A stretch of 63,586 nt of DNA, counting the filler, from Psammoneis japonica (lineage: Eukaryota), in assembly GCA_008632985.1 (NCBI GenBank). It is 5 parts of 5 records of this genome, joined end to end, with 100 filler letters (N's around TTAATTAATTAA, not from the genome) between each part and the next. Parts side by side here need not be neighbours in the genome. Positions count along the whole stretch, not along the records: positions 32,001 to 40,907 come from QPGO01000185.1; 4 more parts are not named here. One strand, given 5' to 3'. The stretch's first letter is position 1; each line of letters begins with the position of its first letter. The notes below the pieces were generated by a model. That model was given only the letters and a program-made list of their open reading frames with translations, was not told the DNA's origin and made no database searches. Below are positions 1 to 58,562 of the stretch, piece after piece. The position numbers and the translations under genes are program-made.

Positions 1-339
1 CTCCCTGACAGAATCCGACTCAGAGGAGTTTGCTTGAAGCTTTGCAGGAAAGACGATGAAGACATTGATTGATGCCGAAAATGCAACCATTGCAATCAAG
101 ATGCTGTTCAATGAGAAACGAGAGAGTTTCATCCTACTTTGAAAAGGACAACGATTGGTTCGTGCCTGCACTGAAGAAACCGACTGTTGACTCGACAATA
201 CACCATCGAAGGGCACAGTAGAGGGAGAGGCCTATGATACTTCGGCTTTCGACCACCACGGTCGTCGCCATTTAGCAAAAACCGGCAATCGCAAACGCAC
301 CCGCGGTGAAGTGAAAACTAGAAGAAAATGTGAAATACC

Positions 340-450
340 CGCAGCCAAAAGTAAGTTCCGCCGACCAAAATGACGTTTTCGGGAAACAAAATCATTTTGC
401 ACCGACCAAAATGCTCATTTTGGGGGACCAAAATGCACATTCGGGAAACA
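340..450. repeat. Short subterminal-type repeats (CCGACCAAAATG and variants) at the edge of a degenerate element
   Basis: GACCAAAATG occurs at ~363, ~404 and ~426, and TTCGGGAAAC occurs twice; these lie directly before the TpA-depleted block. Confidence 0.5.
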
Positions 451-469
451 CTAATTGCAACATGCTGGC

Positions 470-3400
470 TTTGTCTTTGTTGCAACTCATGAGCAAACCA
501 GCTCAAATCCACCTTCACTGCTGGACGTTCTGGACTTTTTACAATGTGGGAAAGGTGCATGTTAACTGCATTTACCCAGCAATGCAGAGCCAAGTCACAT
601 GTGCTGGAAATGGTGTCCACTTCAATCTGCTGCTCTTGTTCCAAATGCCCAGCCATGCTGTTGTGGGCTGCATCTGTTGTCAAAAGAATGGAGAAACTGT
701 CTTCATTTGTCATGTCTGAACCTGCACTGCTGCCAGAATCTTGTTCTTCAGCAATGTCTCCACTGTTGTCACCTGCTTGAAATGGGGGCATTCCTTCTTC
801 AGAAGCATCCATTGCAGCCAGCGTGAACTCTTCAAGTTGCTCATCTGATGTGCCACGCAAAACAGCTGTGCACTGAGCATCTGCATCATCTTCTTCAAAA
901 ACAAGCTGGCCAAGTCATTTTGTTGCTGCTCCACTCAACAACAAGTCATTGCCAATTGCAAGTGATTGTCATTGGCCAAACCAATTTTTCATCATNNNNN
1001 NNNNNNNNNNNNNNNNNNNNNNNNNNNNNNNNNNNNNNNNNNNNNNNNNNNNNNNNNNNNNNNNNNNNNNNNNNNNNNNNNNNNNNNNGTGGTTCTTTCC
1101 CATTCTGTTGTCCTTTTCATGTTGTTGATGCAAATCTCATTCCTGCAATTGTGGGTTGGGCAAGCACATTTCACCACTTTGCTGCAACTGGAGTGTGCAA
1201 CCCCATTGTCTCATGCAGCCACTGCCAACGGGGGTGCTTGTGTGCGGTGCATTTTGCAAGGACTTGTCCACCAAAGTTGATCAAGCAGTCTTCTTTTGTC
1301 TTTCCACATTCTTGCCAATTTCTTCAACCACATGAACTGCAACATCATGTCTGCTCCACAAATCATCTGGCAAGGATCCACCAGCTCTTGTGCAGCCAAA
1401 ATTTCCATTGCTTTGCACCCACCAATTGGGGTGATCAACTTTTCCATGATGACTGCACAGGCTTTTTTCCAACTCCTCAATGCAGGAAATGTCTCAGCCA
1501 CAAATTGAAGCTCCATGATTCCATCATGCAACTGCGCCTTGACCGTCAAATTTAAAATGGAGTCATTTCCATCAGTCACATCTGTGTGCAAAAAGACACT
1601 TTGCAGCAGCATTTGCCTGCCCAATCTCAGCAGGTGTTCTGGCACATCTGATGATGCAGGGACAGTGACAAGGTCTTCAACATCTCCAAGTGACTCTGAC
1701 ACAAATGTCGGATCACAATGCAGCCCACTTCTCAAAGTCCAAAAGAAGTTCTCCATGATCTTTTTGTTTTCATTTCTTTTCTTGAACGGAGTGTGACTTG
1801 TTCCGGCAACACATTTTGATGGAAAGCACTTTTCCACAGCTTCAACCAACAGCCAGCCTTGCCATTTTTCTGCTGCATTTGCCAAATCTGCCACTGCTTT
1901 CCAGCTCTCTTTTGCCAAAGAAAGCCATGCAACAGTTGTCCACAATGCACGGGTGTCTGCCAGCATGGCTGTTTCCAACTTGACAAATGGTTGTCGCATG
2001 ACAGGAAAAGCAGCTCTGCATTTGTCAACAGTGGTGACCACAGAGCAACAGTCTTGTCCACAGATGTTTGCATTGAGTGGTCCCCAAACATCCTTCCTCA
2101 GCTCCAAAAGACAAAAGCGCTGAACCATCGTTCTTTGACAAAGATTTTGCTTTGACAGCATCTTCCATTGGAGCAAACATTGAACCTTTTCCATGCATTT
2201 GCCTTGACCTCTCAATCCTTTCCTTGTCACATTTCAAACTCCCCTGTTGCATCTTTTCTTTTACAAGCCACACAGGAATCTTCCTTCCTTCTTGTCCAAG
2301 CAACATGCATGATTTTTCACATCATCTCATCCTGCAATGCATGGTGCATCACAATTCTTTGAAATGATGTTGTGCCCACATTGCGGTCACCTTCATTGCA
2401 CATCATTGCAGAATCAACCCCTCTTCAATGACATGCCATTCAACTCAATTGGAAGGAATTGCTGTGTCAATGAAACCAAACTGTGCGAATGCTCTTCGGG
2501 CGCAAAACTGCAGGAGCAAATTGGTCTGATGAAGAACACATGAGTGGCCCTGTCAGATTTGTTGGCATGTGAATGTGCATGTGTCTGTTGTTTTTTGATC
2601 ATGACACCAGCAATTCAACACAACTGGTCCTTTGCCATCTTTGCATGCCAGAGATGGGGAACAATGCCAGCAATCGTTCGACAAGGTGTCATGGTCAGAA
2701 TCCAAGAAATTTCTGCAAATGCCAGCAAGGAAACCAGGCTCCTTTTGACCACTCACAAAACAAGTGCATTTGTCCACACAATTGAGAAACCATCCAAAGG
2801 TGATGTTGAAAGGAACATCTTGCACCTCGTCAAGAAATTCTGAACATCCCCGCAGATGTTTGACAATTGGTGTGCTGCTTTCATTTTTCATCTGTTGCTT
2901 GCACCAAAAGCAAACATTGCACTCCATTTGTTGCATCCATTCATGCACCCCTTTCCAATGATGCTCGTGCAAAATGAGATTTGGGGCTTGTCAAAGCAAT
3001 CCTTTGAAACTCTGTGAATTTGCAAGATTTTGCTGATCTGCCAAATTTTCCATTCTTGCAACAACAAGCACCAAAGTTTGCACCCATGCCAAACACATGC
3101 TGGCCAACAGTGCCGGCTCAACAAATGATCCTTTTTCATTTTGGGTGGTGCAATCAGCTGCTTGGCATCAATGACAAACAGCCGCCATTGCTTTGCCTTG
3201 AGCATCTCTTGCTTTTAAATTGCTGAACTTCCAGCGGGTTTTGACAACGGCTGAAGACACTTCATGCAATCCCGCATCCCTCACACACAATGTTTTTTCA
3301 GTCTGCACTCCATTTTGAGTCCCGTGGCAACTGCGGCACACTCAAATTTTTTTCACTTCCTTCATCGCAGCAGATTGCTCCGAGACCATGTGCTGTGCTG

Positions 3401-7587: not shown

Positions 7588-7899
7588 CACGACAACGTCA
7601 AAGACAGCACTGTCGGCACCATGCAGGAGGTGTAGAATACCGGTAAAGCCAATCGCAATAGTATTTACAGGGTGTAGGGCCGGTTTTGTTTTTGTTGTGT
7701 CGCTCGCTGCACCTTCAGGGGACCCGGAGACGGAGCGCCGTTGACGAAGAGAGAAGAACAGTGAGCCAGCAGAGGCTCGTTCTGGTGACTTGTGGTGCAC
7801 TGCTTCCAAATCAGTCGTCCGACACGGGAACAGCTCATGAGCGAAGAACCCCTGCGTGAGCAGGGGAGGCACAAACCACTCTCTCTTGATGGCCTCCAA

Positions 7900-18671: not shown

Positions 18672-20720
18672 GTGTTCTCATGTTCTCAACAAGTGCTCAT
18701 CAACTGTGTTCAAAAAAATGTGTTCAAAAAGCCTTCAACAACTGAGCCAATCAGCAAAAAGTGGGAAACAATGCTTGACAAAATTTTGTCTTGCAGTGCA
18801 TTTGATCTTGACAAGAGATCAACTTTGCAAACATTGACAACAATTCTTTTTATGACCCACATTGTTCCAACAATTGAGCCAGTTGGCAAAGCAAGAAATG
18901 ACAATGAATGAAATTTTCGACTTGCAAAGAGTTTTGTTTTTAACAACAGCACATTGTTTGCAGCAACATGCTGTTGTGACTCATGTCTGTCAATGCCCAC
19001 ATTGGTTCACCCCATTAATTTGCTGTTGCCCTCCTGGCTGTGTGTGGCTTGCAATTTGATTTGTGCACTCTGTGATTTAGATTTTCTGCACTGAATTATG
19101 TTGCAGTCTGTTTCTTGCTCTCTTTTCTCAAGCCCTTTGCTGTCTGCACATGATGCCACCCTCTTGCAGCTGCACTTGCATGACACTGTGGTGCTCTGCA
19201 ATTCTGGTGTCCATGAGGATCTTCTGTCATTTCACACTGTGACCTCACACACTCTTGCTTTTGTTGAAAAGTTTGCTGGGTCAACCAAAGCTTTGCTCAC
19301 AAAAAAAGAAGAGGGTGCAACAATTGTGAATTCTGCATGTGTTTCATTTTGAATCATCTTTGCTTTTTGGCACAGCTTCTGCTCACCTTTCTGCATCCCC
19401 TGCAGCACTGTCTTCCCATCTTGCTCAGCTTTCATGTCAACATGCCTGAGCACCAAGATTGGCAAAAGTGTCAGTTGTTTGCATTGTTCTCATGCATGCC
19501 TGCTTTCATGCCTCACATCCTTTCTCTTGCCTCAGCTTGCCTCTTGACTTCATTTGGCTGTGCCCAGCCCTTTGCTCTGCTGTTGCCTTCCTGCAAGGCC
19601 ATCATTGTCAGGATGTTTGGTGGGCTCTCCTGTGTTTTGCATTTTGTGTCTTGTGAGGCAGCGATGATTTGTTGTTGCACCCACACCAAGCCAGTCGGCC
19701 AAGGTGGTCAGCATCTGTGTCATTGTCTGGCCATTTTTTTTCCTCCATGTTTGCCTGCACTGTTGCAGGCTTCAATGATTTGAGCTGACTCAAATTTGCA
19801 GCTGTGTCAGCAGAAGATCAATGTCTCAGTTTTTGCCACACTGGTGTGGTGTCTTTGCAGGACAGCAGAGCAGATGCCCAATGCAGTCAGTGCACTTTGT
19901 TTTCATGCAGCACAAGGCAGCAGAGCAAGACAAAGACTTGCACTTGCAGCCACTCTCCTTTGCGCGTCTCCTGGCCCAAGAAAAAATGCTTGCACAAACC
20001 CTGGGAAAGAGAGTGCTTTTTCATTGTGACCACCAACTCTTCCTCCATTGGACAAAGCTTCTTGGCGGTTGCAAAAGCCAAGCTTCTTCCATTTCCTCCA
20101 AATCCAGTGCATCAAAGTGGCACGCCATGCTGTCGTTGTTGTCAAAGAAAGCTCTGCATCATTGTCCATGTCAATGTGGGAAGAGGACAAGTGAGAACAG
20201 TGATCCCTTGACAGTGAGGGGCAAGAGCATGTCAAACTTCTTCAAAAAAAAACAGCACATCATCATGGAGTGGTGTGCCAATGTTGGACATCTCTCAAGC
20301 AAGAGAGATGGCTTCAAGTTGTGCTCAGTCTCAGGCAAGCACTAAAATCACTGCTGCCATTGCAAAGTCACTCATCACCATGTTCATTGGCAGAGAAATT
20401 GCTGTCATTCACCCATTGAGATTCTTGGACAGTGGCAGGAGGAAAAAAAGAGGGGGACAAAAACAATGGATCACCGTCGAGAAGGACAGGGGCTGAATCC
20501 ATCAGCACCCAAGCCAAGGGAGTGGTTGACAGATCTGACTGACCCAACGAGCACGGTGCAGCAGCATTGCTTGAGGAGCCAATGGGAGAGGGAGGTGAAA
20601 GAGCACTGGGGACATGTGCTGGGTGTCCCTTTTCACTTGATGTTTTGCTTGCTCCTGAGCCTCAGGGCGGTGTGGTGGAGCAACAGCTGTCAAGAAGAAG
20701 GCTGGCGAAGAAAACTACTG
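18672..20720. mobile_element. Highly degenerate TpA/CpG-depleted repeat relic, unclassified
   Basis: Both TA and CG nearly absent; abrupt return to normal composition ~50 bp from the COG6 stop. Confidence 0.55.
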
Positions 20721-30949: not shown

Positions 30950-31900
30950 TACCGGTACAAGCTTTATTGCTAAAGGCTTACCTGGTATCCTCAAGCACGA
31001 TACGAATGCCATTCTACCACTAGGGCCCTAAGACACGTGGCAGAATGATGCCTGATGTTCGCCACGAGAACGCTGTGGGCTGGACTCTGGCGCATCAATC
31101 CGCGCAGACGCACAGAGTGTTGAAAATCCTCAAGTAAGTGTTGGAACTCATTCTCCAGAATCATCCGGCCTCGGCTTGAATTATGATAAGGACGACAAGG
31201 GTGATCTTCCTATATCGTTTGATCCCAATTTTGGTGGTGGTCTACATGCAAACGAAGAAGAACAGCAACGGAGGAGCTCTCTTTCCAAAGCTGTTTTGTT
31301 TAATCAAGGCCATGCGGTTTGGAAAGCTCCATGCATTCGATTTATTTGCACGTATGGAATTGATTCAATGTGCAGTAATGCAATACCCGGATGAACTGCA
31401 ACACATCGATCATACAAAAGGCAACACGCCTCTTCACGTGGCATGCATGGCTCCTCCAGTGCTACAAGTCGGATGCTGTTGTAGTGGGTTGACGAGGATG
31501 CGACCGGCTGTCTTTTTTGAAACAGCATCCCGAGGCGGCCAAGGTGCGAAACCGTGAGGGACAATTTCCGCTGATGGTTGCACTGGAGCACAGCAAGGAC
31601 GATGCGGAGCACGCGGCTGCATCGTTGGCTGGGGTTATCTTTACGCCAGTGGTGAGCTCACCCTAGCTTTTGTTCTGTGCGTGTTCCGTTGTCAATGCTT
31701 GCCAATACCCACACTTTCCTGTCAGGTGCAAAAATCAATGATGAAGTTCGATAACGTAAAACAGGCGGCTCATTCGGACTCTTCGTTTACCGCTGGGCCT
31801 CTCCGTGCAGCAAGAAGAGCAACCAGTACAATACAGCACGCAGTGGATAGGTGGGTCTTAGTGTTGCGAATTGTGGACGTTGACGCACACCACGGAAATG
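30950..31900 (+). pseudogene. Ankyrin-repeat-like protein fragment
   Basis: ELIQCAVMQYPDELQHIDHTKGNTPLHVAC (G-x-TPLH-x-A); surrounding frames broken. Confidence 0.55.
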
Positions 31901-32000
31901 NNNNNNNNNNNNNNNNNNNNNNNNNNNNNNNNNNNNNNNNNNNNTTAATTAATTAANNNNNNNNNNNNNNNNNNNNNNNNNNNNNNNNNNNNNNNNNNNN
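31901..32000. other. Artificial contig linker
   Basis: N44-TTAATTAATTAA-N44. Confidence 0.97.
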
Positions 32001-34578
32001 CCAATTCGACAACTCCACCTGCACCCATCCATCTTATCAAAGAAGATCAAACAGATTTCTGCAAGGCATCAAACTAAGACAAGACACACGCTCAGTTAAG
32101 ATGCGCCAGTGTGATTTCCCAGATGCAGCAAAATTCGGCAGTTCTCTCATGGACAGCAATGCACCATCCTCGCCTGAAAAAGAGTTGTGTTGCAAGCTGG
32201 CTCTTGCTTTGTTCACATCATGTCGGACTGCCTCAGACACACGACCATTCGATCAAACCTGCTTGCAGTCATTCCGTCAAGCGGTGGAGAGAGAAATCGT
32301 CACTGAAGAAAATCTGAAATTCTTGCAAAATCTGCAAGATGCAAAATCTAATTGTCTGCGATTAAAAAGCACATCAGATTTTCTTAAACGCACCACCCGT
32401 GAGCATGCATCGGACGACAATGAATTTAGCACAAGGTGCGAAAGCGACACCGAAGACGACATTGGAACGGCTTTGCAAGGACAAATGCTTGATGCTCTTC
32501 TAGATGAATTGGTGAACCATGAACACGAAGACGGGACAGAAGCGAATGATGAAGCAGCCGCACCCACAAATTTAAGTGGCAAACAAACCAGACAGAAGGG
32601 AAGTCACCTTGCAGGATGTCAGCACTTGGCATGCATGTGCATGACTTCTTCAGATCAAAACACTGTTGTCAATTCGGTCCCTGTCGTAGAAACAATGGAG
32701 CCACCAGAAATTGAGGTCAATGAAGAAGACAATGAAAACAGCATGCAAGCAGATGAAGAACCTGCACCTCAAATTAGGAAACGAGATGTAGTTCGAGCAT
32801 TGCTGACCAAGACTGGACACATTCAACGATCTTTCCAAGACACAACTAATTCGGAAGAAGCCGTTGATGTCCTTGAAGCTAACGGCTCAGCTAAAAGCTT
32901 GGTTGATTGGTCAAAAAAAGCCAAGCTAGACCCACATCAAAGTCGTGCTTTTGAAGTCATGGCAGGAACTTTCATTTTGACGCACTGCAAAGACGCTCTG
33001 GGAGAACAAGCAAGTGGCAATGTAAGAGGAGGAATTGGACACGAATTTAACAAAGAATGCAGGAGATTGGCTGGGTCAGTTGAAGTGCGAGAATGAAGAG
33101 GCACACAGTCAATTTGTTTCTTGCATGGAGCAGGAGGAAGTGGCAAATCCACTGTTGTCGATCTTGTTGTTTTGCACGCAAGAGAATGTTGCTCTTTAAT
33201 TGAATGACCATTCACTGCACAAACAATTGCCGTCACTGCCATGACCGGAGTTGCAGCGACAATTCTGAAAGGAGACACCATTCACAGAGTTGCCCATCCA
33301 AACAGGAAAAAAGAAATGACAGAAACACAAATGGAAAGCTGGAGTGACACTCGTCTGCTGATTGTTGACGAAATGTCATTTGCTTGCAGAAGAGATTTAG
33401 AAAAATTACATGCTAATCTATCTGTCGTGAAATCCAATTTAGACAGGCCTCATGGGGGTGCAAACACAGTGTTTGCAGGGGACCTGAGACAACTCGAGCC
33501 AGTTGGACACGGAATGCACCCTCCACACAAGGAGACCTGTGCCGAATTCCAGGAATGGGTGAACTGCTGCATCCAGTTGCATGGGATGCACAGATTCAGT
33601 GAGGATCCAGAATGGGGCAGTTTGCTAAAACGATTTAGAGATGGTGAAGCGACTCTCGAAGACATCGACAAAATCAATGAAAGAGCAGTGAGAAAGGGTC
33701 AACAACTGCCAGAGAACATTGAATGTGCATCACACAGAAACAAAGAAAGAGACTCCATCAACACAGCCTTGTTTGAGGAAAGGACCAAGAGACTGCACCA
33801 AAGAGATGGAGAAGTCTTGGACTCTCTAGCCATTTTCAGTGACGATTTACAAGTGCGTGACGGAGCAAGACAGCACATGCCTTTCCCGGTGTGCAAAACA
33901 TTCTGGAAAAACTGTGGAGAGAGCGATGTGGAAATGCAATCTGGCAGGCTTGATCCAGCATTACGAACGTGCAAGGGATGTAGAGTTATGATCCCGTACA
34001 ATGAAAATGTGGCAAATGGCATTGCGAATGGAACACAAGCAACTGCAGCAAAAGTCGTGCTGAAACCAGGAGAACATTCATCGCAAGTGGTCTTGGACTG
34101 TGGAACATCCATTCGAGGTGTCACAGCATCCCAGGTGGATCATGTAGAACTCAAGCACAGCAACAAAAGCATCGATCCACCCACCTTTTCGCTCAAGCCT
34201 AAGTCTTCCAGTTTCAAAGCCTGTTCAAAGGACCCAACCCAACAGATGACAGCTGAGGAAAAAGAGAAACATGTGCTCGGACTGAAAGTAACCCAATTGC
34301 CATTCACAACAAACAATGCGACTACAGGACACAAGCTTCAAGGAAGCGGTGTCGACAATGTGTTTGCACATAGCTGGAGCTGTGCACAAAACTGGGCACA
34401 TGTCATGCTCTCCAGGGTTAAGACCAGAAATGGTCTGCATCTTCGGCAACCGCTGAAGAGAGATTTAAGTCTATACAGACTGCTGGACGGGTGTAACGCC
34501 CTGCTCCGGTTGATGGAAGGAAAAAGTGTCACATACTTCACCAACGAACAGTATGATGACATTTTGCAGTCCAATTAA
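32001..34578 (+). mobile_element. Helitron-type PIF1 helicase (C-terminal part of RepHel), inactivated; 5' part beyond the contig edge
   Basis: Walker A GAGGSGKS, TAMTGVAATILKGDTIH, Walker B LLIVDEMSF, FAGDLRQLEPV, HRFSEDPEW, IANGT, TGHKLQG, HVMLSRVKT; in-frame TGA at 33094 and 33205. Confidence 0.88.
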
Positions 34579-34649
34579 CACATGGAACATTTTGATGCTG
34601 CACATGGGAATTATTTCTACATTTTGGAAAATGTTCCAAGCTTTATACG

Positions 34650-34683
34650 CGGGCTTGCAGGCGTGCCCGGCAACAACCGATAG
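34650..34683 (+). other. Candidate Helitron 3' end: GC-rich hairpin followed by a CTAG-like terminus (GATAG)
   Basis: CGGGCttgcaggcgtGCCCG imperfect hairpin ~70 bp after the helicase stop, with TAG 12 nt later. Confidence 0.4.
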
Positions 34684-35419
34684 AAAACAAAGGGTCTAAT
34701 CTAATAAATCGATGTTAGTACATTATTACAATGATGGACACACTCAGCAACCAGTGATACACAACGTTAGGACAGTTCTCTTATCATCTACCATAGAACG
34801 ATCACACCAGAATTATCAAAAAGGGGAAACCCACGTCTCTTCTTATAATATATTCATACACAAATACAAGAATTAAATCGCCATTTTTTGATATAATGTT
34901 AAAACATAAATATAGAATTACGTCGCACATTAATTAATTGCGAACCCATCATTTAAGCGTGCGAATTTTTTAAAAAATGATTGGTGGCAAGTAAAGATCA
35001 AAGCTCTAAAATTTGATGCTCGCGCGCATGGCAATCCAAACCAGCCCGGGTTCCACACCTCCTCACTTCGTGTCCAGAGTTCCTACCATAAAGGAGGAAC
35101 CAATTACTTAGCTTGCGGAACCTCTATTTCGTGGATATTAACGGATTACTTAGATTTTAAACTTATTCATGTATAAAGTTCTATTACGTAAATGTCATCT
35201 TAGAATTGATTATTCGTATAATCATGCGATGCCCCTACAGTGTGTTTGGTTGATCTTTTCTCACACATGTGTTAGATCTAGATTATTTTACTGTACGTGA
35301 ATTTGACGGCTTGCTTTGAGTGATGGATTTCTTCAGACCGATCTTAGGGTTACGAGATCAAGGCAAGATGCTCTCTGCTCTAGAGCTGCTCTCTGCTGTA
35401 GAGCTGGCTAGAGCCAGAG

Positions 35420-38400
35420 TTAGCAGCAGAGAGTGGCACTGTCTTTCAGAAGGTCGTGACAAAGCACCGTGGGCCTCAGTTGTTTGTTCAACCCCACAGG
35501 GCCGTTGTCAGCAAAGGGTGGAAACTGCGCACATGTTGATGCACTGGCATTGCTGGCCACCACCTCCAGAGTTGTTGGATCACTTGGCAGCACGTGCTGC
35601 TCTGGCACAAGCCATTTTTCTTTGTTTGGCACAAGCTGCACCTGGGTTCTCCAAAAAAGCATTGGGAGTCTTTGGTCGCTGGGTGCTGACTGGACATTTG
35701 TGTGATCTCCATCAACCTTCAAAGCTGCCTTGTTGGCAATGTGGGCTTTCACATTTGCTTCATCAGCACTGCTGTGGGAGCATTTTTCATGTGTGAGCTG
35801 AAAAGTTGAGATTGGTGTTTCCAATGACTGACATTGCAGCTGACCTTGCTGGCCCATCAAAAAAACAATGGACCATTGGAGAGTGCTTGGTGCACATGTG
35901 TGCACATGGTCTTGTCAGCTCAAAGCTGAAGTGGAGAAAGAATGCTGGGTGCCATGCTCTCAGACAATTGGCACCAGCCTGAGCTTGCAAGTCAAAGATC
36001 AAAGAGCATGAGCTGCCATGGTGGGTTAGCTGGGGTCAGGTGTGGCCCTGATTTAAAAAGCTCACATGGCAGACAAGTCTTTAAAAATGAGGTGGTGTTT
36101 GCCATTGGTGCCTCCACAGGAAAAGCAACCCCCAGCAGAGGCAAATTCTTTGTGTGGCTCAGGCGGCTTCTTCTCTTTTGAGTGCTCTTTCAAGGCAGCA
36201 GGGGCTGCACAGCACATGTGTGGCCAGCCATGACAAGAAAAAACTCTGCCAACCAACTGCGCAACACATTTCATCTAGCTGCCAATGCATGTTTTCCAAC
36301 AACCACATCAGAGATTGTGGTGCTCCTCAGAGAAAGCTTTCCTGTCATCTGCAACCCACCACTTCCAAAGCAAGCTTCTCATGCCAGGTTGTGTGCTTCC
36401 AAAGCCAATGATGGCTGACTTTTTGTCTAAATTTGGGGACATGACACTCACACTGCCAAAATCACTGCCAAAAGACAAAAGAACTTTGCAAGCATTTTCA
36501 AAGTTTGCATCAATGTTGCTTTCAGCTGCCAAGAATTCGGCTGTGATTTGCTTTCACATCTGGCCATGCTCTGTGTGCAGTGCAGCACAAACCAAGCAAG
36601 CAAAGCAGCACTGACACAGTGGCCTGCTCACAATGTTTTCAATGGATGCTGTTGGTGTTGGATTGTGCTGTCTTGTGCTTCCACAAATGTGATCATTGGT
36701 CTTCTGCTGCAGACAAGATGGCGGCACTTGTGCTCAACAAGTTTGCCAACCTCAACAAGGGAGGTCTAGATCCAGGCAAATGCCTTCAGTGCAGATTTGT
36801 GAAGGACATTTGCTGGTGTGCACTTAACCTCTGAACCTGACAGAGTGGTTGTGTTGGCACTAATTTCTTCAACAACATTGGCTCAATCTCTGTCATGCCA
36901 TCATTTCAAGCTCTCAGATGTGGTGTTCAGCCTCATGCATGAGAACAATTTTTTGCTGCATGGCACACTTTTGGCAAACAGAGGCGCTCAGCCATGCATG
37001 TGCTTGTGGCTCCTGGGGTCTTCCAAGCTGCTGCTGCTCAGTTGTGTGGGACCGGATGCCAACCTTCTGGGTGCACTGCAACCCCAGATGGTCAGGCTTT
37101 CACTTTGTGAGCTGTGAAGTGCACATGCTTTTTGGCAACTTGTTGGCTGATTTTCCCTGTGCTGTCTCCGCCTGTTTTGATGCTGCTTTTCTTGAGAGAG
37201 CTGGGCTCATCATTGAGAGTTGTGATGAGCTGGACAATGCTCAACAAATGCTTCACTCAGAAGAGCCCAAACACAAGCTTGCAAGCCCAGAGTGATTGAG
37301 ACAGGGCCATTGCAATTTGCTTTGTTGGTGGTCAAAAAGTGAAAATCACACCATGAGCCAGTTTGGTCGCCTCTGTTGCTCAACTTGCCTCCATGCAGCA
37401 CATGTAGTTTGTGCTCCATTCCACCTTTTTGAACCAGCTGATTTCTGTTTGCCAAACCCAGCCAGCACAAGAAAAACTCTCCAGCTGATTCATGATGTTC
37501 TTGATGCTGTTGGCCCAAGATTTGGCAAAGTCTTTTGGACAAAGTGCACACTCACTCTGCCAAAAATTCAGCTCAATGCACTTGACAGGGTGCACTGGGA
37601 GTTCTTTGCTGCATTCTTGGAGTGGCCTCTGCAGCTCTGCAGCTGTTTGCTTGATGTGCCCAACTGCAGCATCTGTGACACACATGCTTTGAGACTCCTG
37701 GCTCTGTCAAGCCCAGCTTCAACAAACAGTGGTGTTCAGCAGAGAATGTGTTCATTTGAGTGACATGTCAAATCAGGCCAGCAGCTTCCAAGCATGCCTC
37801 AACCACCCTCTCTTGTTGGCCTTGTCTTCTCAGCACAACACAACAACCAGCTGTGGTGCCAGAATCTTTTCTCTTGATGCAGCAGGCCATGAACTTGAGT
37901 GGGCTTTTGCAGATCGTCATGGAAGACAGCAATGCCAAAAACAGTGTCACAAATGTTGTGATTTGTTCCACTGAATGGCCAACTCTTGCTGCAAGAGCAA
38001 ACAATTGTCTTTGCACTGTGCTCTGCTCTGCACAAAACTTTTGGTCATTGTGTTTCCCCAGCAAGTGTTCCCAGAAGAAGAGAAGAGTGGCAGAACAGCT
38101 CAGCTTTTTGATCCTGCCCTGCCTCTTGACTGAAAAAAGAAGGTGCATGGGTGCATCATGTCACGCTTGTCATTTGCCAGCTCTGGCACAATGCACACTT
38201 CCCAGTGCACCCATTTCAAACAACAGATCTTTTGAAAAATGCAGTTTGTCCAGTGCTTGAGAGGCTCTCTGGACAACCCCTTGTGCATTTTTTGGCAAAG
38301 CTTTGACATTGCAGCTTGCTGTGAGATGTGTGTGTGCTCCCTTGCTGTGCTGACAGAATCTTGTTGGCACTTGCAGCACCCTTGTGTTTGTTCTTCAAAT

Positions 38401-40907
38401 GCATAACTGGCCAGTTGAGCAAGATCACTCTGAAGCTCTTCCTCTGCAACAGGATGGTGTCTCACTGTGAACTGCTTTCAAACACAGAAGTCAGATCCAT
38501 CAAGTGTGTCACAAGCTCTTTCTTGGATGCATTGCAGCAGTGAGCAAGCAACTTGAGATGGGTGTGCCAAAAGTGAGTGGTGCCCATGCCCACCACTGGC
38601 AGAACACACTCAGCAAGCACAGCTGAGCAGCAGCAACCTCTGGCAGAATGCACTCTACAAGCCCAGCTGAGCAGCAGCAGCAGCAGCTGTTCTCACAAGC
38701 ACAGAAAATGAGAAGCAACAAAAGCATGCTTGCTTGTGTGAAGCTTTTTGTCACCCAAGTGCTCTCAGGCCAAGCAGACTCTGCATCCCCCACCTTTGAA
38801 ACAAGAATGCAGGCACCAGCTTGCTTGGACCCTGGTGAGCAATTTTGACAATCTGGGTGATTTTGAATTTTTTGCTTCCACAACCCAACAGAGTTTTGTC
38901 AGAGAGTTGGGAGCCATTCCTCCACTCCTCTGGGTGGCAGGTGGATGACTCACTCTCACCAGGTTGCACTTGACACTCCAGTGTCTGCCCCAATCTCTGC
39001 TGTCTTTGAACACAGACTTCAATCTCTCTGCCTTTGTGCAGGGAAGGCATTGTTTGATGACCTGATTCTGTGTGCACCCAGAGAGATCCAGGGCACCACA
39101 AGAGTTTTGTCATGGCACTGGTGGCAGTGTGATGGATTTGTGACATCTTCCCAAAGAAACCTTTGGCTGAACCCTTGTGATGTGTGGAGCTGTTCAGGAA
39201 CTTTGACAGACCCAGACATGTTGAAGAAAAGATGTCATTGCTCCTGATGTGGAGGATGCGGCAACTCATTGAGTGCAAAGATGTGCCATCGCTGATCCCA
39301 CCCATTTTGTTGTTCTCACTCTTTGGAGTGAATCATTTGGTTTGCATGATTGTTGAGTGGTGTCAAGAGGCACCTGATGTTGGCAGTTGTTGATTTTCCA
39401 TTAATTCCCAGGCAAACCACAGCCACAGCAGACTGCAAGACAAGTGCAACCAGTTGCTCAGGAGAGGACCTCAAGGAAGGGATTCCCTTTACAAGGCATT
39501 GCCTTGCTGATTCAACATTCACACCAGAGAGTCATGGGTGCCAAGTTTGGTGCTCATCTGCTGGAAGACTGCTGACAACACCAAGATGTCAGAATGCCTG
39601 CACAATGAGTGGCAGAGGAGTGTGCAGATCAAGCTGTTGAGGCCAAGGATGTGGTCCAGCAGAGGAGATGGAAGTCACAGGTTGCAACCACAAGGGTGAC
39701 ATGTCTTGTGCCAAGTGGTTCAAGAAGACCAGCAAGAAACTGGAGATTGAGAGGCAGAGCCATGCATGGATGTGAGAGGCAGAAAAGACAATGGCCCATC
39801 AGTGGACAGCAACAACACATGAGTGTTGACACCAAAAAATCTGACAGATCAACCTGTTCCAGCCAAAGCAGAAGAAGCACTGCATGACCACCAAGAGAAC
39901 AGAGGGGAGCATGAATGACCAAGCCAACACAGACATTGATTCCAAGGAGATTGTCCTTGACAATGGCTCTGGTGCCCTTGGCATGGCAGCAAGCTGGAAA
40001 CTGGTGCACAATGTGTGACCAGCGAGGATCAAGATTGACCCATCAACCAATGCCCACACCCCAGATGAAGCCTGGGCAATGCCAGGATGGAGAGACATGA
40101 AGCTTGGGTCAGATGATGTGATGGCCAGTGACCTCAATTTAAAGGATGTGAAGAGCAAGCACTGCATGACTTGAGATGACGGAATTGCAGATGAGTTCCA
40201 ACTGTTGGGCAAGAAAACTGGGGACAAAAGCTGCAGTGTTCAAAGTTGACAACATTGGGCTGCACATGTTTGCACCAAGTTGAAAATTCTTCAACTGTGC
40301 CAAAGAGCTGCAAGAGCAAGAAGAGCATGTGAGCATGCTGTTGAAGGACAAGAGGAGAGCCACCACCAAAAAGGAGCACAAGGACACATCCAGAGTGATC
40401 ATTCCCACTGCAGAACAAAACACCAAGGGCTGCTCTAAGAGAGAGCAAGCCAAGAAAGCTTTCAGGCTGCAGTGTGAGGGATTTTAAACTGTCATTTTTA
40501 TCAAACCAGGTGAAGAATCTGACCATTGCACCTGAAGACATTGACAGAATGGCGGCCATGTGGGGACCACAGACAGCACACTAAAAGAAAGACCAAGCCT
40601 GCACACCCTGCCCATGAGAGAAATGCTCTGCATTGATGTCATGGAAGCATGTGGAGTCAAGACATTGTGCACAACAGACAAGACAAGCAAGCACCAATCA
40701 AACATGAAGCCAAACACCAAGAACTGCACCAATGCACACAAGGCATTGACGTGGTGATCCTGCAACAGCGCATGACACCAACACATTTAAGATCAACTCA
40801 TCAAGAACAACCTTGAGTTCAAGGATGTGGTGTTGGCGGCCATGCTGATGGCATGGACCCAGAACCAATGGTCCATGAATGCCAAACCACCATGTTCCTG
40901 AAGTGGA
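35420..40907. mobile_element. Highly degenerate TpA/CpG-depleted repeat relic, unclassified
   Basis: About 19 TA and about 20-25 CG in ~5.5 kb by manual count; short tandem CTCTCTGCTSTAGAGCTG at the left edge (~35370-35415). Confidence 0.6.
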
Positions 40908-41007: not shown

Positions 41008-44000
41008 GAGCTTCTTCCTGATCGGAAGGCTTTCCCAACCACCGTTCTCGTTGTTCTTGGGTTGTAAGGTTGCTTGCAAAGAATGTGCTCGCAGCTCTTT
41101 GCAGCATCCTTGTCCATTGTGCATGTCGAACACAGCCAACAATTTCTTCCATTGTTTGACAACCTGGAAGAAGGTTGCAAGAGTGAAGGGAATCACTGTG
41201 TCCCCCCTTCTTCGTTTTTGGAGAGCAAGGCCCGAAGATCAACCAGATTTTGGAAAAATTGAGTCGTCCCAAAACGACTGTCATGCCACTCTCCATCTGG
41301 CATCCAGCAGCAGTCCAACATGATTTGGTCGAACCCATGATTGTCGAAATCAACAAGTTTCTCAAACTGCTGCTTGACTCTCTTGACGAAATCTCTTGCT
41401 TTCACATTGCAATTTAAGTGCAGATCAGGATGTCCGTCTTGGAGAGAAACTGTTGGAACGACGTTTGTGACTGTTTTGTTAGATTCCTCAAATGCCATTG
41501 CNNNNNNNNNNNNNNNNNNNNNNNNNNNNNNNNNNNNNNNNNNNNNNNNNNNNNNNNNNNNNNNNNNNNNNNNNNNNNNNNNNNNNNNNNNNNNNNNNNN
41601 NNNNNNNNNNNNNNNNNNNNNNNNNNNNNNNNNNNNNNNNNNNNNNNNNNNNNNNNNNNNNNNNNNNNNNNNNNNNNNNNNNNNNNNNNNNNNNNNNNNN
41701 NNNNNNNNNNNNNNNNNNNNNNNNNNNNNNNNNNNNNNNNNNNNNNNNNNNNNNNNNNNNNNNNNNNNNNNNNNNNNNNNNNNNNNNNNNNNNNNNNNNN
41801 NNNNNNNNNNNNNNNNNNNNNNNNNNNNNNNNNNNNNNNNNNNNNNNNNNNNNNNNNNNNNNNNNNNNNNNNNNNNNNNNNNNNNNNNNNNNNNNNNNNN
41901 NNNNNNNNNNNNNNNNNNNNNNNNNNNNNNNNNNNNNNNNNNNNNNNNNNNNNNNNNNNNNNNNNNNNNNNNNNNNNNNNNNNNNNNNNNNNNNNNNNNN
42001 NNNNNNNNNNNNNNNNNNNNNNNNNNNNNNNNNNNNNNNNNNNNNNNNNNNNNNNNNNNNNNNNNNNNNNNNNNNNNNNNNNNNNNNNNNNNNNNNNNNN
42101 NNNNNNNNNNNNNNNNNNNNNNNNNNNNNNNNNNNNNNNNNNNNNNNNNNNNNNNNNNNNNNNNNNNNNNNNNNNNNNNNNNNNNNNGGACCTTCATTTC
42201 CTCCATTTGCTTTGCCACTCCCAACTTGGCCACCGGATGGACAAGATTATGAAGGTCAGGGTGAGGATGGATCCCTGTGCCACACAGCATCAATGTCTGC
42301 ATGGAGTTCATGCATCTGAACTCTCCACAATCAGCACCTGTGTGATCCCATGTTTGGACCACGGTTTCAAACATGTCCTCGATCGCCTTGTGGTCAAACG
42401 CCAGCTTGCCAACATTGTCGTTGATCCAGTCAATGACAACAACCAGTCCGCCAACAAGCAAATCCATCAAACTGTTAAGTTTCGTCCCGCACTCTGCCAC
42501 ATGAACCTCCTTGAAATCGAGTCCCGGGCTCTGCATGCGTCGGTTGTTGCGATCCCCCGCAATGCTGCCGAACAGCCTGTGGCTTCTCTGAAGCAATGAA
42601 GGACACAATCGCCAGCCACGAAAGGACGCTTCACAGCATCTGTGTTGCACAACAAGCAGTGAAAACGGGAGAATCCGGTTTGACACCCAGCCACAATGGC
42701 GCAATGAAAGCAATCACACACACCAACCTCGTCGAGGTTGTCAATGATTGCCGAACAACCGCACGAGAAATTAAAGTCCTTCACGATGGCAAACGGAAGA
42801 CATTTCCTTGGCATGACAACAACGGGATGCTCAACTGTGTCGGACGGAAGATTTGGCTTGCCAATTTCCTCTTCCACCCACACAGAGTGAGGGTCAAGGA
42901 AAAAATCTTTGATGTTTCTGTGGGTTGGCTTGCCCGACGGAGGACGACAAGGGCCACGGCATCTCATCATTTCTGCAGCACATGACAGATCAAGTTTTGC
43001 GAAATGACCATGCACACGCGATCGGAACTCGGCACCCATGCCGAACTGACACAGTTTCCAGCATTGCCTTTGGATGCAGTGACAACCTTCAACGACCAAG
43101 AGCGACCAACAGCGTCTCGCAGTGATGAGCAAAGAGCACCAGTCTTGGTGCACCCATCCATGTCACAATCCTCTTTGTCAATGTGCAGCTCGGTTTTCGA
43201 ATTGACGGATTTTTTGCCGGACGACGAGATGCACTTCACTTGAATTTCCACGCCTTCCCTTCTAATGTGCTTGGCTCCAACCATCTTACGGAGCTCAGCC
43301 GCGAAAAGACTGTCACGGCACGGGTCATGGAAGGAATGCATTTCTTTCAAAGCAACAAGATTGATTTTGTCCTCGCAGAGTTGCACGGCGTCCAAGATTG
43401 AGGCTGTCATCACCTGCACATCCTTTGGAAGCTTCTCCCACTTGTCCCTGCCAAAGACAGCACCAGGCTTGTGAGCAGGTCCCACTTCATCTAACTCGCC
43501 ATCTGCGACTTCGTAATTCTGGCCACAACAACCAAAACAGATCCGACAGCGCAACTTGCACTCTGGTCCATCCCTTTTTTTGTTCGGCTCGCCATGTTCC
43601 AACACTGCACGGAGTGTCGACGACACACTGAATCGCAATCCAAAAAAGCATTTCTGACACATCTTGTCCGTGTGTCGCAAACAAGTGACCACGTCAGAAA
43701 AATGAGAGGTTGACTGGGTCGGGCAAGTGATCGCAACCATCGATTCTTGCGTTGGATCATTGGGAGCTGCGCCGTTTTCAAATCCATGCACAAACTTGCG
43801 GAGGTGACTCGCCAAGCAGAAATTGGAGATGCTGTGGAATGACTGGTGCTTGACACAGTTCCCCTTGAAGGAACCGGAAATGGGGGTTTCCTCAAAAGAC
43901 GACAAGGTGAGAATGTTGTGACTTCACCTCACCCGGAATCGCAAACGGAGATGGTTCAGGAAACACTTTCACAAGCTCTTCTTTTGTGAAATTGTCTGGC

Positions 44001-46240
44001 AGAGGAGGAGGTGACTGACAAGTTGCACCAAGGGTCAGCCACTTTGTTCGGGAACATTCAAATTGTTCCTCGAGAGTCGGCACATCTTGAAGAATCAGCG
44101 ATTTGTTCTGAGAAACATCAGAAGGTTCGCCATCTTTGGCGTTTTTGAGACTGGGGCTTGAGGAGCAAAGGGAGGCGGCTGAAGAGGTGGCAAGAAGAAC
44201 AGAAGAATTGGAGACAAGAAGAGGAGGACAAACAATCAATCAAACAATGTGGTGGATTCACACCATTTGGATTTTTTTGTTTCCGAGATTTTTTCATGAC
44301 GGATGGGGTTGCATTGCCGATTTCTTTCTTCTTGTGCTGAGTGGCAAAGTCACGAAGCCTGGCTTTCCACATGGCCTCAAAACGATCCCTTGTGGCCTTG
44401 CTTTTGCCGGAATCATCAGCGGCAGAAACCACACGATCAATTTTCACACATCTTAAAAGAGTCTCATCGACATGTGTTGCGTGCATTTGTTCTCGCTCGA
44501 CATCGAGCATCGCTGGTCGCGCGGGCTTTTCCCAAGAATTTTTGTGTTGGCGGAACAACGACTTTACGAATTCAGGGAAGGACACAGGGCATTCGTCTTT
44601 GGTCGTCTCACAGTGACCAAGAGCCAGGAAATTCTCCAAAAAGTTGATGCAAGTCAATGTCTTGTCACATTCGCCGAACAGGGAGTGCAGCCAACAACCG
44701 CAATCACCATTCCTTTCAGGTGCGCACGGCAAAATCTTGTCACGAAGAATCAAAAAACCAATGTGAAGGTGTTGCGCGCAACGCAAAACCTTCCCTTCAA
44801 AACTTCTCAGCTCAGTGTGCTTGACAAGTGGCTCTCCCTTTGGGTCGCACAATCTGGGATCATGGAGAAGCTTGCACAACATGGTGATCTTTGCCATCAT
44901 GTTGGTTGCAATGTCTGTTGATTTTGCCTTGTTGCCGATGACTTTCATGTCCTCCACTTTGGGAGCACGGCGATGCTCCATCGCATGAGGATGTTTGGTG
45001 CCTTGACTGGAACAACTCCATCTTTTTGCAGAAAGAAAGTGCAGCAAGCTCTTGTGCCCAAGTTCCTTTGCAACAACACGGTTCACAGCCATTGGCTCTG
45101 CAAAAAAATGAGGTCGGCCCTTCGACTTTTGCCACACATGGGCAAGCGCGATCCAATTCGGAGAGGGATCACAAGTGGAATCGCAGTGAAACTGAACCTT
45201 GGATTTCGCCGTCTCGATTGTCGCTTTGACACGGCTCCGCTCGTTGCCATCGATCACTCCAAAACCGTTGGCAAAGAGAGATTCAAACACGGCCTCCTCG
45301 AGGTGGGAATCATTGTTGTCTTGCGACAGAGAGGTGACCGACAGGTCACGCGGCGCCATGGTTGCTGTTCCAACACCAAAAAATCTGGTTTCTGTGGAAA
45401 TGCACCAGAGTGGTGTGTGGGAGAAGTTGCACATGCGCCTGGCACGATTTGGAGTTTCAAACACAAAAACCCACCAGACGCATGTGCAACTTCTCCCAGG
45501 GAAATCCTGCATGAGATTGCACCGGGAAAGGGCAACACAGAGTGCAGAGCTGATGGAAACAAACATTGTGCGGAACCGCATCAGGAGAAAGGGTGCATGC
45601 ACTGGAAAACAACATGGATTTCTGCATGTGCGTTAAGGTGCGTAAAAAACACGTGGGGGTCTTCAAGCGACGCACGCGAACAATCACATAGAAACATTCA
45701 GAAACGGAGACAGCACAGAGAGAAGTCAGAAACATGGATCCAAAACAAAGTGACACACAACAGAAAAAAAAACAACAACAACAAGAGATGAAGGCAACGG
45801 CGATGGGATCGATGAAAAAGAAGGATTCGGATGGAAAGACGCCGGAGACGGTGAAAACAGGCGGCGCCAAGATGAGGAAGGAAGAGAAAAATGGGGCAGG
45901 CAAAATGAAGAAAGAGAAAAAGAAGCCGACAACACGACGTCAAGAGGGGAGCAGCGATGCGATTCAGCGTTTTGAGGGACCTCTTCCTCTCAATGATGTT
46001 CGCCCAAAATCGCAAGAAATGCAGTGTGGCTTTTTTGGAATGGCGACGAGGAAACATCCAACGCGGCAGCGGCACATTTGAAATTCTTGCAAGAGAGCGG
46101 ACAAGACACATGGAATGAAGAGGATGATGCGGACGACTGGGCAAATTGGAGCGCAGTTGTTGATCAAACAATCAGCGCACACTTTGCATGATGAAAATTT
46201 CATTGCATGCAATTGCAGTGTTTGGCTTGTCGTCAAAGAT
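41008..46240 (-). pseudogene. Long degenerate minus-strand coding region of unknown family within repeat DNA
   Basis: Successive protein-like ORFs 44118-45602, 42967-43905 and 42467-43153, almost Tyr-free; TA lost but CG retained. Confidence 0.45.
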
Positions 46241-46249
46241 CACCAGTTG

Positions 46250-50167: not shown

Positions 50168-50328
50168 AATCCACGCACCGGTGTCAACTCCCAATGGAGT
50201 TGCTGCCACTCGTTCGTCTCGTTACAGACGACATCCCATCCAACGGCGATCTTCTGTGTCGCAATCCAACGGCGATCATCTACATCGCAATCCCCACCTG
50301 CTAATCGATCCTCTACATCGAATCATCC

Positions 50329-53300: not shown

Positions 53301-54367
53301 GATGGCGCACCATGTGCCTCAGGCCGGACAACGTCTTCTATCCCCACAACGCCTCTACAGTGAGGAACATGGCGTGACAGGAAAATGTGAGGGAGACGAG
53401 GACTCATTTCGAGTGCATGTTGATGGCGCCGGTTCGCTCAAGGTCGCGCACGCGTCAAATCACTTGCCGGTTGCGTCTGTGACCAACGGGGTGGCACCCG
53501 CTCCTCAAGTCAATCTGTCTGTGTTGCACGAGGACAACCAGAACCTCACCACCGGTCAGAAGCTCCTTCAAGAATGGCACTTCAGGTTTGGTCACCTGAA
53601 TGTGCCACGTGTCCAAGGCCTGCTTCGGGCCGAACCTTTTCTCCGACCCAAATTCAAGCATGCTTCGCGTTGCGACATTCCGCGGTGCGAGGCATGCGAA
53701 CATGCCAAAGGACATCGCCGAACCCTCAAGTCCGCCAAACATGCGGCTACTCCAGAGCGTGAGGGTGCTCTTCGAGCCGAGCATCTACGTCCAGGCCAAG
53801 CCGTCAGCGTGGATCACTTCGAATCCCGTCTCCTCGGCCGAACCTACGACTCCTGCGGGAAGGCCTCGTCCCAGCAATACAAAGGAGGCTGCATTTTTGT
53901 GGATCATGCCTCCGGTTACCCACATGTTGAACACCAACTTGGTTTCTCTGCTGTGGAAACGGTGCGAGCGAAGCAAGCGTTTGAAAAGCACGCGATGGAC
54001 CACGGCGTCATCATCCAAGAATTTCTTGCCGATTCTGGCGCTTTCAAGGCCAATGCTTTTGTGCAACACATGCGACAGCACGAACAACGTCTACGTTTTT
54101 GCGGAACCAACGCCCACCATCAGAACGGCGTCGCAGAACGCGGCATTCGCTCCGTCTCCAACATGGCGAGAGCGATGCTTCTCCACGCATCCATCCGTCG
54201 GAAGGGGGGCATGGACAGCTCTTTGTGGCCTGTGGCCGTGTCTCATGCCACGCACATTTACAACGTGACTCCCAACGCTCAAGGCCACTGCCCCGCGGAC
54301 ATTTTTACCGGCACTGCTGCACCCCGACATCGTCTTCGCGATGTCCACGTCTGGGGCTGTCCGGTTT
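50329..54367 (+). mobile_element. Ty1/Copia (CoDi-like) gag-pol polyprotein: Gag, Zn knuckles, protease, GAG-pre-integrase, integrase; truncated by contig end
   Basis: CCGCGKVGCTKRTC, WHWCDKC, protease DTGAS, LLSPQ, WHFRFGH..CEAC, integrase VSVDH / LADSG / HHQNGVAERGIR, VWGCPV; protease-integrase order indicates Copia. Confidence 0.95.
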
Positions 54368-54467
54368 NNNNNNNNNNNNNNNNNNNNNNNNNNNNNNNNN
54401 NNNNNNNNNNNTTAATTAATTAANNNNNNNNNNNNNNNNNNNNNNNNNNNNNNNNNNNNNNNNNNNN
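54368..54467. other. Artificial contig linker
   Basis: N44-TTAATTAATTAA-N44. Confidence 0.97.
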
Positions 54468-58150: not shown

Positions 58151-58562
58151 GAAGCACGGCTGCGCGGCGGAAATCTCCCGCTTCCGCGCACGCGCGCATA
58201 AGCCGCCCGCCCACCCGCCGCCCGCCAGCCGCCCTCACTTTTTCAGATTTTCCGTCTGTCATCTTCCGTGCATCCTGCCAACTTTCAACTTTCACGCAAA
58301 GAACAGAACATCCAACGAAGAACAACAGCGGAGAGACAGCGACAGAGATAATAAATACCTTCTGAGCATGATGGATGCCACCATGGCGAGGACAAAGCCG
58401 TCTTCCTCTGACCTGAAACCTTACCAGGACGGTGGTGTCATCCCGAGTGAAACGCTGAAGGCAGATTCTTGTTCGCAGAAAAAACAATCGACGTTCGTAA
58501 TTGGCACGACTCCTGGTGCGATAGGGTTCTCAATTGTTGGCTCGTTGTTGCCCTACAAAGTC

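Follow-up and report, generated by a model that had tools for sequence, protein, structure and literature searches.

Repeat-directed mutagenesis was long known only as the C-to-T process of repeat-induced point mutation (RIP), to which one 2026 preprint adds a process directed at TpA in a rhizarian alga. In this alga, Bigelowiella natans, single-copy, integrated DNA from NCLDV (the nucleocytoplasmic large DNA viruses) and from virophages is reported to undergo ~1000-fold TpA>TpG/CpA hypermutation, and the preprint proposes ADAT2 as the enzyme, without demonstrating it, and remarks on TpA-poor transposon genes (Mettrop et al., bioRxiv 10.64898/2026.01.13.699255). Here we describe the same signature in the diatom Psammoneis japonica, recorded in the helicase of a Helitron-like DNA transposon that lies in a 63,586-nucleotide stretch of assembly GCA_008632985.1 (filler letters included; hereafter, the window). 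The two systems are alike in that TpA goes to TpG or CpA, the change is restricted to foreign DNA and far exceeds the background, and an ADAT-type deaminase is proposed; they differ in that a rhizarian host and viral DNA are concerned in the one and a diatom (a stramenopile) and a DNA transposon family in the other, and in that the rate was measured there and is derived from a comparison of copies here. The main text of the preprint makes no mention of diatoms, trinucleotide context, boundaries or flanks, context data possibly being held in its supplements, and no diatom report of TpA hypermutation was found in the literature searched, whose coverage did not extend to most subscription journals.

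RIP, as it occurs in ascomycetes, likewise consists of dinucleotide-specific transitions that fall on both strands of repeats after their insertion. However, it converts C to T, creating TA, and it creates stop codons, whereas in the diatom TA and tyrosine are removed, the change seen is not C:G>T:A, no new stops arise from TA in the Helitron and the mutated zones do not appear to be bounded by homology. Leakage into single-copy neighbours, which we also observe, is described for RIP (PMC9453070). A further comparison is offered by the TadA-derived editors ABE8e and ABEmax, for which 94% of off-targets are reported to be A>G or T>C, with TA preferred genome-wide (PMC13225742), as in the diatom; unlike the diatom process these are engineered enzymes, and in the diatom data CA is not clearly favoured over AA.

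TA steps have been lost codon by codon in the helicase

The P. japonica assembly (91.4 Mb, 597 contigs; C-numbers below denote contigs carrying copies) was searched for further copies of the element, and at least 14 sibling copies of 92-96% identity were recovered, sibling counts throughout being lower bounds from this search. All of them terminate at the identical base, and 13 also have the 5' end of the window element in common. The window protein was then compared to 120 intact RepHel relatives (the best 120 of 167 matches), with columns taken as conserved at >=70% or >=80%, and as tyrosine columns where Tyr was the top residue at >=40%. An earlier reading of this DNA from the sequence alone (the sequence-only reading) had recognised a Helitron helicase here, an identity that both Pfam PIF1 and the RepHel relatives bear out.

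Between 33100 and 34447 the window holds 20 TA against 92 expected (observed/expected, o/e, 0.22), with CA+TG at an o/e of 1.61. Tyrosine makes up only 4 of the 492 residues of the window protein (0.8%), compared to a median of 3.4% in the relatives, and His and Cys are in excess; at all 12 Tyr-top columns upstream of 34450 the window has lost the tyrosine to His or Cys, and the siblings are mixed at every one of these columns, some with His and others with Cys. Where columns are >=70% conserved the window deviates at 26 of 171, and a single CA>TA or TG>TA step restores the consensus at 13 of these 26 (8 of 14 at >=80%). A CpG rule accounts for 1 of 26 (0 of 14), and so CpG decay was rejected as the source of the codon changes. 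All one-step T>C or A>G deviations at these conserved columns sit at TA. At the other 13 deviating columns the window residue is the family majority, and these represent lineage divergence; the statement of the sequence-only reading that most deviations are TA steps was therefore overstated, half of them being so and the rest family-wide.

Its central claim, that TA>CA/TG changes are recorded codon by codon, holds, as all the codons it cited except the Met of DEMSF are polymorphic TA/CA/TG among the siblings. The His at 33451, where 86 of 120 relatives have Tyr, is CAT in 3 of 6 siblings and TGT in the other 3, and the His at 34399, where 117 of 120 relatives have Tyr, is TGT in 7 of 13 siblings and CAT in 6. 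For the Ala at 33460 both GTA and GTG are present in siblings, the Thr at 33466 is ATG in 5 of 6, the Pro-His pair at 33523-33528 meets CTG and TGC, the Pro at 33298 is CTA in 4 of 6, the Ala at 33958 is GTG in 4 of 6, the Cys at 33970 is CAC in 2 of 6, and the His at 34438 has TA in 2 of 13 and TG in 2 of 13. The Met of DEMSF (33373) fits an ATA>ATG change, given that the relatives show Ile 91, Val 26, Cys 3 and Met 0 times out of 120, but it is ATG in 7 of 7 covering copies, with no sibling polymorphism, and may thus predate the spread of the family. The relatives do not share the His, Cys, Pro and Ala residues of the window, showing Tyr, Leu, Ile or Val at these places, and the substitution spectrum, as detailed below, is far from random.

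The mutations are A-to-G transitions at TA, acquired after insertion

Sites were called at columns covered by >=5 copies over the readable element, giving 427 TA sites (247 with TA surviving in some copy and 180 called from CA and TG alone) and 391 CG sites; the near-identical copy C44 was left out of the per-strand rates. In the alignment of 15 copies over 32300-35105, 379 of 2,806 columns are variable, 357 of them by pure transitions and 315 in TA/CA/TG/CG steps. The outcomes at the 427 TA sites were TG 1441, CA 1383, TA 1357 and other 7. Counted per strand, A>G at TA occurred at 2581 of 7683 positions, compared to 43 of 23,956 for G>A outside CpG, a ~190-fold difference before saturation correction, and to 100 of 69,467 for all transversions; in other contexts, under majority polarisation, A>G stood at 0.011 (AA), 0.008 (CA) and 0.003 (GA). 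Symmetric sites were hit equally on both strands (TG 603, CA 619), and no transcription-strand bias was found at them. As in Bigelowiella, the changes are nearly exclusively A:T>G:C transitions at TpA on both strands, and the conversion level of this Helitron family is 65-75%. TA steps spanning the host/element junction are also converted.

An error-prone polymerase of the polymerase eta type, resynthesising DNA in the repair of methylated repeats, could in principle leave A>G changes of this kind, seeing that such polymerases have a WA hotspot, that AA is the second most mutable context here and that neighbouring hits fall on the same strand at 0.528, compared to 0.504 +/- 0.008 when shuffled (maximum 0.524, 300 shuffles). 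Nevertheless, TA lies ~30-fold above AA, and error-prone polymerases give a mixed spectrum, whereas the transversion level at TA does not exceed the background (3 A>C and 10 A>T in 7683), and so this explanation fits poorly and we consider it quite unlikely.

The direction of change is set by the 120 intact relatives and by empty sites that keep TA. Where two copies are both converted at a site, they agree on CA versus TG at 0.43-0.73, reaching 1.00 only for one near-identical pair, which indicates that the conversions took place independently, after insertion. When polymorphic sites are restored, TA o/e rises to 0.63 and 33100-34575 encodes 18 Tyr, indicating that the source element was largely unmutated. 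The near-identical pair C35a/C44 differs, over 10,267 aligned bases, at 10 TA, 1 CA/TG, 16 CpG and 3 other positions, and the TA differences suggest that the process continued after the two split. CpG sites are lost as well, at ~0.09-0.12 per site inside the element, and this loss covaries along the element with that of TA, ranging from 0.01-0.04 at the ends to 0.05-0.22 inside. Every stop detected in the helicase frame traces to CGA>TGA, including the two in the window, at 33094 and 33205.

A pyrimidine after TA favors conversion

The strand reading TAY (Y, pyrimidine) is hit more than that reading TAR (R, purine), at estimated rates of 0.8-1.7 versus 0.2-0.7. Of 145 sites with TAY on one strand, 130 show the predicted majority outcome, a second Helitron family of the same genome (~66% identity) gives 95 of 131, and conversion reaches 0.92 where both strands read TAY, 0.76 where one does and 0.44 where neither does. 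Among residual TA, double-TAY sites number 0 of 100 in the other erased blocks of the window compared to 266 of 809 in its gene-like blocks (p=2e-16). Since TAY is the tyrosine codon, this preference strips the transposase of nearly all its Tyr, to His or Cys, and yields almost no new stops: of 237 observations of Tyr codons in the N-terminal RepHel part, 13 still read Tyr. No report of a TAY preference was found in the literature searched.

The same targeting might operate through another chemistry, in which a modified T or A (such as the T of RTA after oxidation or alkylation) in silent chromatin mispairs, giving T>C. As the base pair concerned is one and the same in TAY (A>G) and in RTA (T>C), all the counts above fit it equally, and the covariation of CpG loss with TA loss ties the process to DNA-modified domains. 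The preference for TA followed by a pyrimidine, on the other hand, matches a preference known for a deaminase, and we know of no base-modifying enzyme of this kind in diatoms, although none was searched for; a modified base is in our judgment a minor possibility.

The 3' boundary differs from copy to copy

The sequence-only reading had further proposed that TA is kept in the last ~40 codons of the helicase and that mutation fades toward the end of the element. Converted sites in the window copy number 43 of 63 over 33100-34447, 1 of 8 over 34448-34578, 7 of 35 over 34579-34907 and 0 of 11 over 34908-35105, whereas 12 siblings (C44 and C91 left out) show, over the same intervals, 296 of 389, 77 of 96, 253 of 419 and 46 of 132. 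The first part of the proposal thus stands for the window copy (1 of 8, and 8 of 54 from 34466 on, compared to 43 of 63 upstream; Fisher p=0.004) but not for its siblings (77 of 96; p=0.0002), and an element-wide gradient over the last 40 codons was rejected on this ground. Likewise, of the Tyr kept in the window copy, that at 34474 is replaced by His or Cys in 12 of 13 siblings and that at 34552 in all 13. The second part gave way to a step at a copy-specific position, with the mutated zone passing the 3' end in the three informative empty-site comparisons described below. In the window copy the fitted change point is 34466, ~640 bp inside the terminus; across copies, change points lie 134-639 bp from the end, the window copy being the extreme, and those of heavily converted copies, resting on 5-10 sites, are weak. 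The fade in the window copy is better seen as the edge of a copy-specific mutated block, and its spared end forms, together with the flank, a ~950-bp TA-rich island between two mutated domains.

Family-wide there is only a mild dip in the last 200 bp (46 of 132, or 0.35, compared to 0.76), due in part to resistant TAR contexts and to copies with spared ends; in copies that spill, the o/e in the last two bins is 0.62 and then 1.17. Among copies, between 2 and 34 of the 43 sites in the last 500 bp are converted. The richer the 3' flank is in TA, the lower is this terminal conversion (rho -0.69, p=0.01, 13 copies), which shows no correlation with conversion of the interior (rho -0.17), on which ground copy age was rejected as the cause of terminal sparing. 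At the 5' end, 0-4 of 11 sites are converted in 11 of 14 copies and 10-11 of 11 in the two copies with the most TA-poor flanks. In 9 of 12 copies TA is scarcer in the 3' flank than on the 5' side (p=0.03).

These data bear on whether repeats are recognised by homology, as in RIP, with paired repeats mutated, leakage to neighbours and weaker mutation at repeat edges. Repeats are indeed struck here and gene-like blocks are not, both element ends are on average less converted, and leakage into single-copy DNA has its precedent in RIP (PMC9453070). However, conversion of one and the same 500-bp terminus, which 14 copies possess, amounts to 5-9% in some of them and to 70-79% in others, flanks duplicated at >=99% between contigs are still TA-rich, and the target in Bigelowiella is reported as single-copy (bioRxiv 10.64898/2026.01.13.699255). 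We consider homology targeting unlikely and hold that the process is probably targeted by region.

Empty sites reveal spill into host DNA

Seven 3' flanks were searched for an uninserted counterpart, and three proved informative. The copy on C219 is matched by an empty site on C25, the flanks being otherwise ~99% identical, and 26 of 35 TA are converted in the +1..750 interval of the filled allele (13 to CA and 13 to TG, with zero changes in the reverse direction), compared to 1 of 98 farther out (+751..3000) and none of the 19 on the 5' side, the last change lying at ~+710. The converted zone contains a C2-domain gene, whose filled allele carries Tyr>His, Tyr>Cys and Leu>Pro replacements, and short-read contigs (one sample, perhaps the assembled one) hold, for parts of this zone, a TA allele and a converted allele at depths of ~30 and 35-42. 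Compared to its tandem paralogue, the C79 flank shows 33 versus 3 changes in +1..1250 and 4 versus 5 in the 5' kilobase, and the C113 locus, set against a paralogue, shows 11 versus 0 within 500 bp on the 5' side and, along 3 kb of the 3' side, 67 versus 3, accompanied by heavy CpG loss. The mutated block ends sharply, inside or outside the element depending on the copy, from ~640 bp inside the 3' end (window copy) to 0.7-1.1 kb or more outside (other copies).

Such edges might instead be set by selection, if spill were the default and insertions that ruined a needed gene were lost. Of the four loci whose 3' end is wholly or partly spared, three indeed have an intact host frame that starts <=230 bp away (MYND, cyclin and SNARE), as this would predict. 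Selection on a neighbour leaves unexplained, however, the sparing of 400-640 bp inside the element, the spared end in the window adjoins no gene, and the C2-domain gene and a Cys-rich gene were struck yet kept, all of which makes selection improbable as the origin of the boundary.

The empty sites also bear on whether TA hypermutation took place at all, rather than RIP read backward, CpG decay, reverse-transcribed RNA editing or an assembly artefact. CpG decay does yield TG and CA and does occur here. Nevertheless, a Tyr of the relatives is His in some copies and Cys in others, the empty alleles retain TA, the element is a DNA transposon whose strands are hit equally along with host flanks, and both the TA and the converted allele are held in short-read contigs, and so we find these explanations hardly credible. 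To summarize, A:T->G:C mutation takes place at TA steps after insertion, on either strand, independently in each copy and with a preference for TAY, in a sharp-edged block of the chromosome that is decoupled from the limits of the element, a conclusion in which we have very high confidence.

Two side observations concern the flanks and interiors of these copies. Three pairs (window/C91, C194/C31 and C114/C345) have a ~99%+ common 3' flank over 3-6 kb, with interiors independently mutated to the end, and no common 5' flank was found for window/C91 and C194/C31; the arrangement could stem from events at the spared terminus (recombination, or replacement of the end), from 3' transduction or from misassembly. 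In addition, a 390-bp element occurs twice in the C99 copy (L005:1110-1501 and L040, one of them at a site matching window 34874-34877) and once in C345 (L045). The bin with one of the C99 insertions has a TA o/e of 0.70 amid erased DNA, and the 390-bp element probably arrived after the mutation wave.

The element and its setting

The features of the window copy and its surroundings are listed in Table 1.

Table 1. Features of the window copy and of the DNA on its 3' side (window positions).
Feature	Coordinates	Strand	Basis or content
3' 3.1 kb of 12.3-kb HLE2-type (by protein) Helitron-like element	32001..35104	+	left side truncated by window N gap
RepHel frame, C-terminal half including predicted PIF1 helicase	32002..34578	+	tblastn with P0008/P0012/P0015, 43% identity; Pfam PIF1 E=4e-13
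Hypermutated zone	33100..34447		43/63 inferred TA sites converted; 12/12 conserved Tyr now His or Cys
Spared end of window copy	34466..35104		8/54 TA sites converted; Tyr 34474, 34534, 34552 and TAA stop inside
3' subterminal hairpin, 6+2 bp stem, 5-nt loop	35079..35100	+	3-4 nt before element end
AT-rich flank, TA normal	35105..35400		27 TA in 35106-35400, o/e 0.99; base-for-base match to flank of C91 copy
Older block without TA and CG	35401..40907		first kb o/e 0.10 and 0.13; ~99% identity beside C91 copy

Seven copies are long and 8 are shorter than the full element, most of the latter being internally deleted derivatives whose remaining 5' and 3' ends measure ~125 bp and ~0.9 kb. The window element is co-linear with RepHel proteins of 1,866-1,911 aa that bear DUF6570, Helitron_like_N and PIF1; siblings align to both RepHel halves, and an EEQGR..HxH motif is visible in one of them. 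The catalytic tyrosine motif of Rep occurs in intact relatives and was not seen in the readable sequence of the copies. With an HUH Rep and a PIF1 RepHel, the element is Helitron-like, judging from its predicted proteins. Its natural stop at 34576-34578 is TAA in the window copy and TGA in 12 of 13 siblings.

All copies begin (A)TAC and end CCAA(T), the ends reading (A)TACAATGG at 5' and GGAACCAA(T) at 3', and so lack the HLE1 termini (5' TC, 3' CTRR); the A|T target and the 3' hairpin nonetheless resemble HLE1. The hairpin emerged when the last 62 nt were folded as DNA (-6.6 kcal/mol for these 62 nt together) and is kept across copies except at TA conversions. Two clean empty sites place the insertion at an AT step and exclude a duplication of >2 bp, a 2-bp AT duplication reading the same as none. 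DUF6570, which is reported to mark HLE2 transposases (PMC11417382), is found at residues 129-257 of P0008 (E=7e-17), a part that aligns to the siblings at 44-48%. The HLE2 Helitrons (Helitron2, Helentron) also resemble this element in combining DUF6570, an HUH motif and PIF1 in RepHel, in their 3' hairpin and in having non-autonomous derivatives with both ends in common (PMC11417382, PMC5148889). The terminal inverted repeat of 11-18 bp of HLE2 was not seen here, where inspection by eye gave a 7-bp inverted match, nor was its T|T target, the target being AT. By its protein the element would thus be an HLE2-type Helitron with atypical ends, an assignment made without a tree.

On its left side the copy meets an N gap at 31902-32000 with TTAATTAATTAA in mid-gap, resembling a scaffolding spacer, and the DNA to the left of the gap (~31900-32000) matches nothing upstream of the element in the genome.

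Other features of the window and the genome

The window is a patchwork in which 1-kb blocks with a TA o/e of 0.00-0.2 and an excess of CA/TG alternate with gene-like blocks at 0.5-0.9, a confinement to mobile DNA like that described for Bigelowiella. Both TA and CG are missing from 35401-40000, 46000-49000, 56000-58000 and 19001-20000, and TA only from 8001-11000 and 43001-46000; this juxtaposition suggests two stages or ages. The open frame at 50305-54423, 1,372 codons long, matches GAG-pre-integrase weakly (E=3e-4) and has a TA o/e of 0.13-0.26 and intact CpG, putatively a copia-like element that has lost TA and not CpG. Tandem copies of a sulfatase gene occupy 58140-61866, and the kilobase nearest the erased block, 58001-59000, has a TA o/e of 0.36 compared to 0.59-0.65, possibly through spill. 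An exon of a family A DNA polymerase and a 5'-3' exonuclease piece (6319-7938) adjoin the TA-erased block that begins at ~8000. Elsewhere in the genome, silicon-transporter genes, a family whose known distribution points to a diatom, gave 24 matches (best E=2e-208), and C38:226311-230342 holds a 1,511-codon frame with three tandem silicon-transporter repeats.

Discussion

The explanation we favor as a whole is a post-insertion, region-bounded A-to-G hypermutation, to which we give a probability of roughly 0.6. According to this model, the host would mark the inserted element as silent chromatin, a step suggested by the CpG loss that accompanies TA loss, and the mark would spread or stop short according to the neighbouring DNA. 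A host adenosine deaminase of the TadA/ADAT fold would then act on DNA within the marked block, turning A into hypoxanthine, which would be copied as G, and the fade in the window copy would be the edge of one such block.

That the agent is a deaminase of this type acting on DNA is, in our estimate, an evenly balanced proposition. The UACG preference in RNA that TadA-derived editors are reported to show (PMC8052359) would by analogy fit TAY, and we found no usable information on 3' context in the portion of PMC12398605 covered. The genome encodes an ADAT2-like protein with the usual motifs, a TadA-like protein and two with an ADAT1/ADAR-type domain, as lower bounds from exon-by-exon searches. 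No unusual deaminase candidate emerged from the genome searches. Separately, a single reading frame at L075:313-1785 (contig C79) joins a zinc deaminase domain to a 2OG-Fe(II) dioxygenase.

Several points weigh against the favored explanation. The deaminases found look like ordinary housekeeping enzymes, and no expansion or chromatin-reader fusion was seen among them in these exon-by-exon searches, and a lesion on the A of TAY is indistinguishable by sequence from one on the T of RTA. The 180 of 427 TA calls that depend on the co-occurrence of CA and TG may include a few that derive from CG. One of the four empty-site comparisons, that of C10, was uninformative, its paralogues being already TA-poor, no second copy of the C8c flank was found (single match), and the C34 and C35a flanks gave only repeats. 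The correlation of terminal conversion with the 3' flank is partly circular, the same process having erased some flanks, and at the 5' end the flank correlation is not significant (rho -0.48, p=0.09); the window copy itself has a TA-poor 5' flank (0.30) and yet 0 of 11 terminal 5' sites converted. Finally, the spared island of the window borders no gene, only 300 bp of AT-rich DNA followed by the older erased block.

Whatever the enzyme, TA loss has practical consequences, for if it is ignored the ages of diatom transposons, their consensus sequences and RIP-type indices will be misread, and insertions can recode neighbouring host alleles. The preference for TAY over TAR provides a motif for assaying candidate enzymes, and the boundaries of individual copies can be overlaid on methylation maps, with heterozygous filled and empty alleles as built-in controls. 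A natural adenine deaminase acting on DNA would also interest the base-editing field. That a second lineage bears the same signature, here in a DNA transposon, suggests a defence more widespread among eukaryotes. We tentatively propose, as a possibility that we would not yet call probable, that diatoms and chlorarachniophytes share a defence in which an adenine deaminase that naturally acts on DNA, drawn to silenced chromatin and reading TAY, would disable tyrosine-dependent transposases and recombinases without homology pairing, and would rewrite host alleles as far as ~1 kb beyond the insertion. If true, RIP would have a counterpart that turns A into G, and adenine base editing a natural example.

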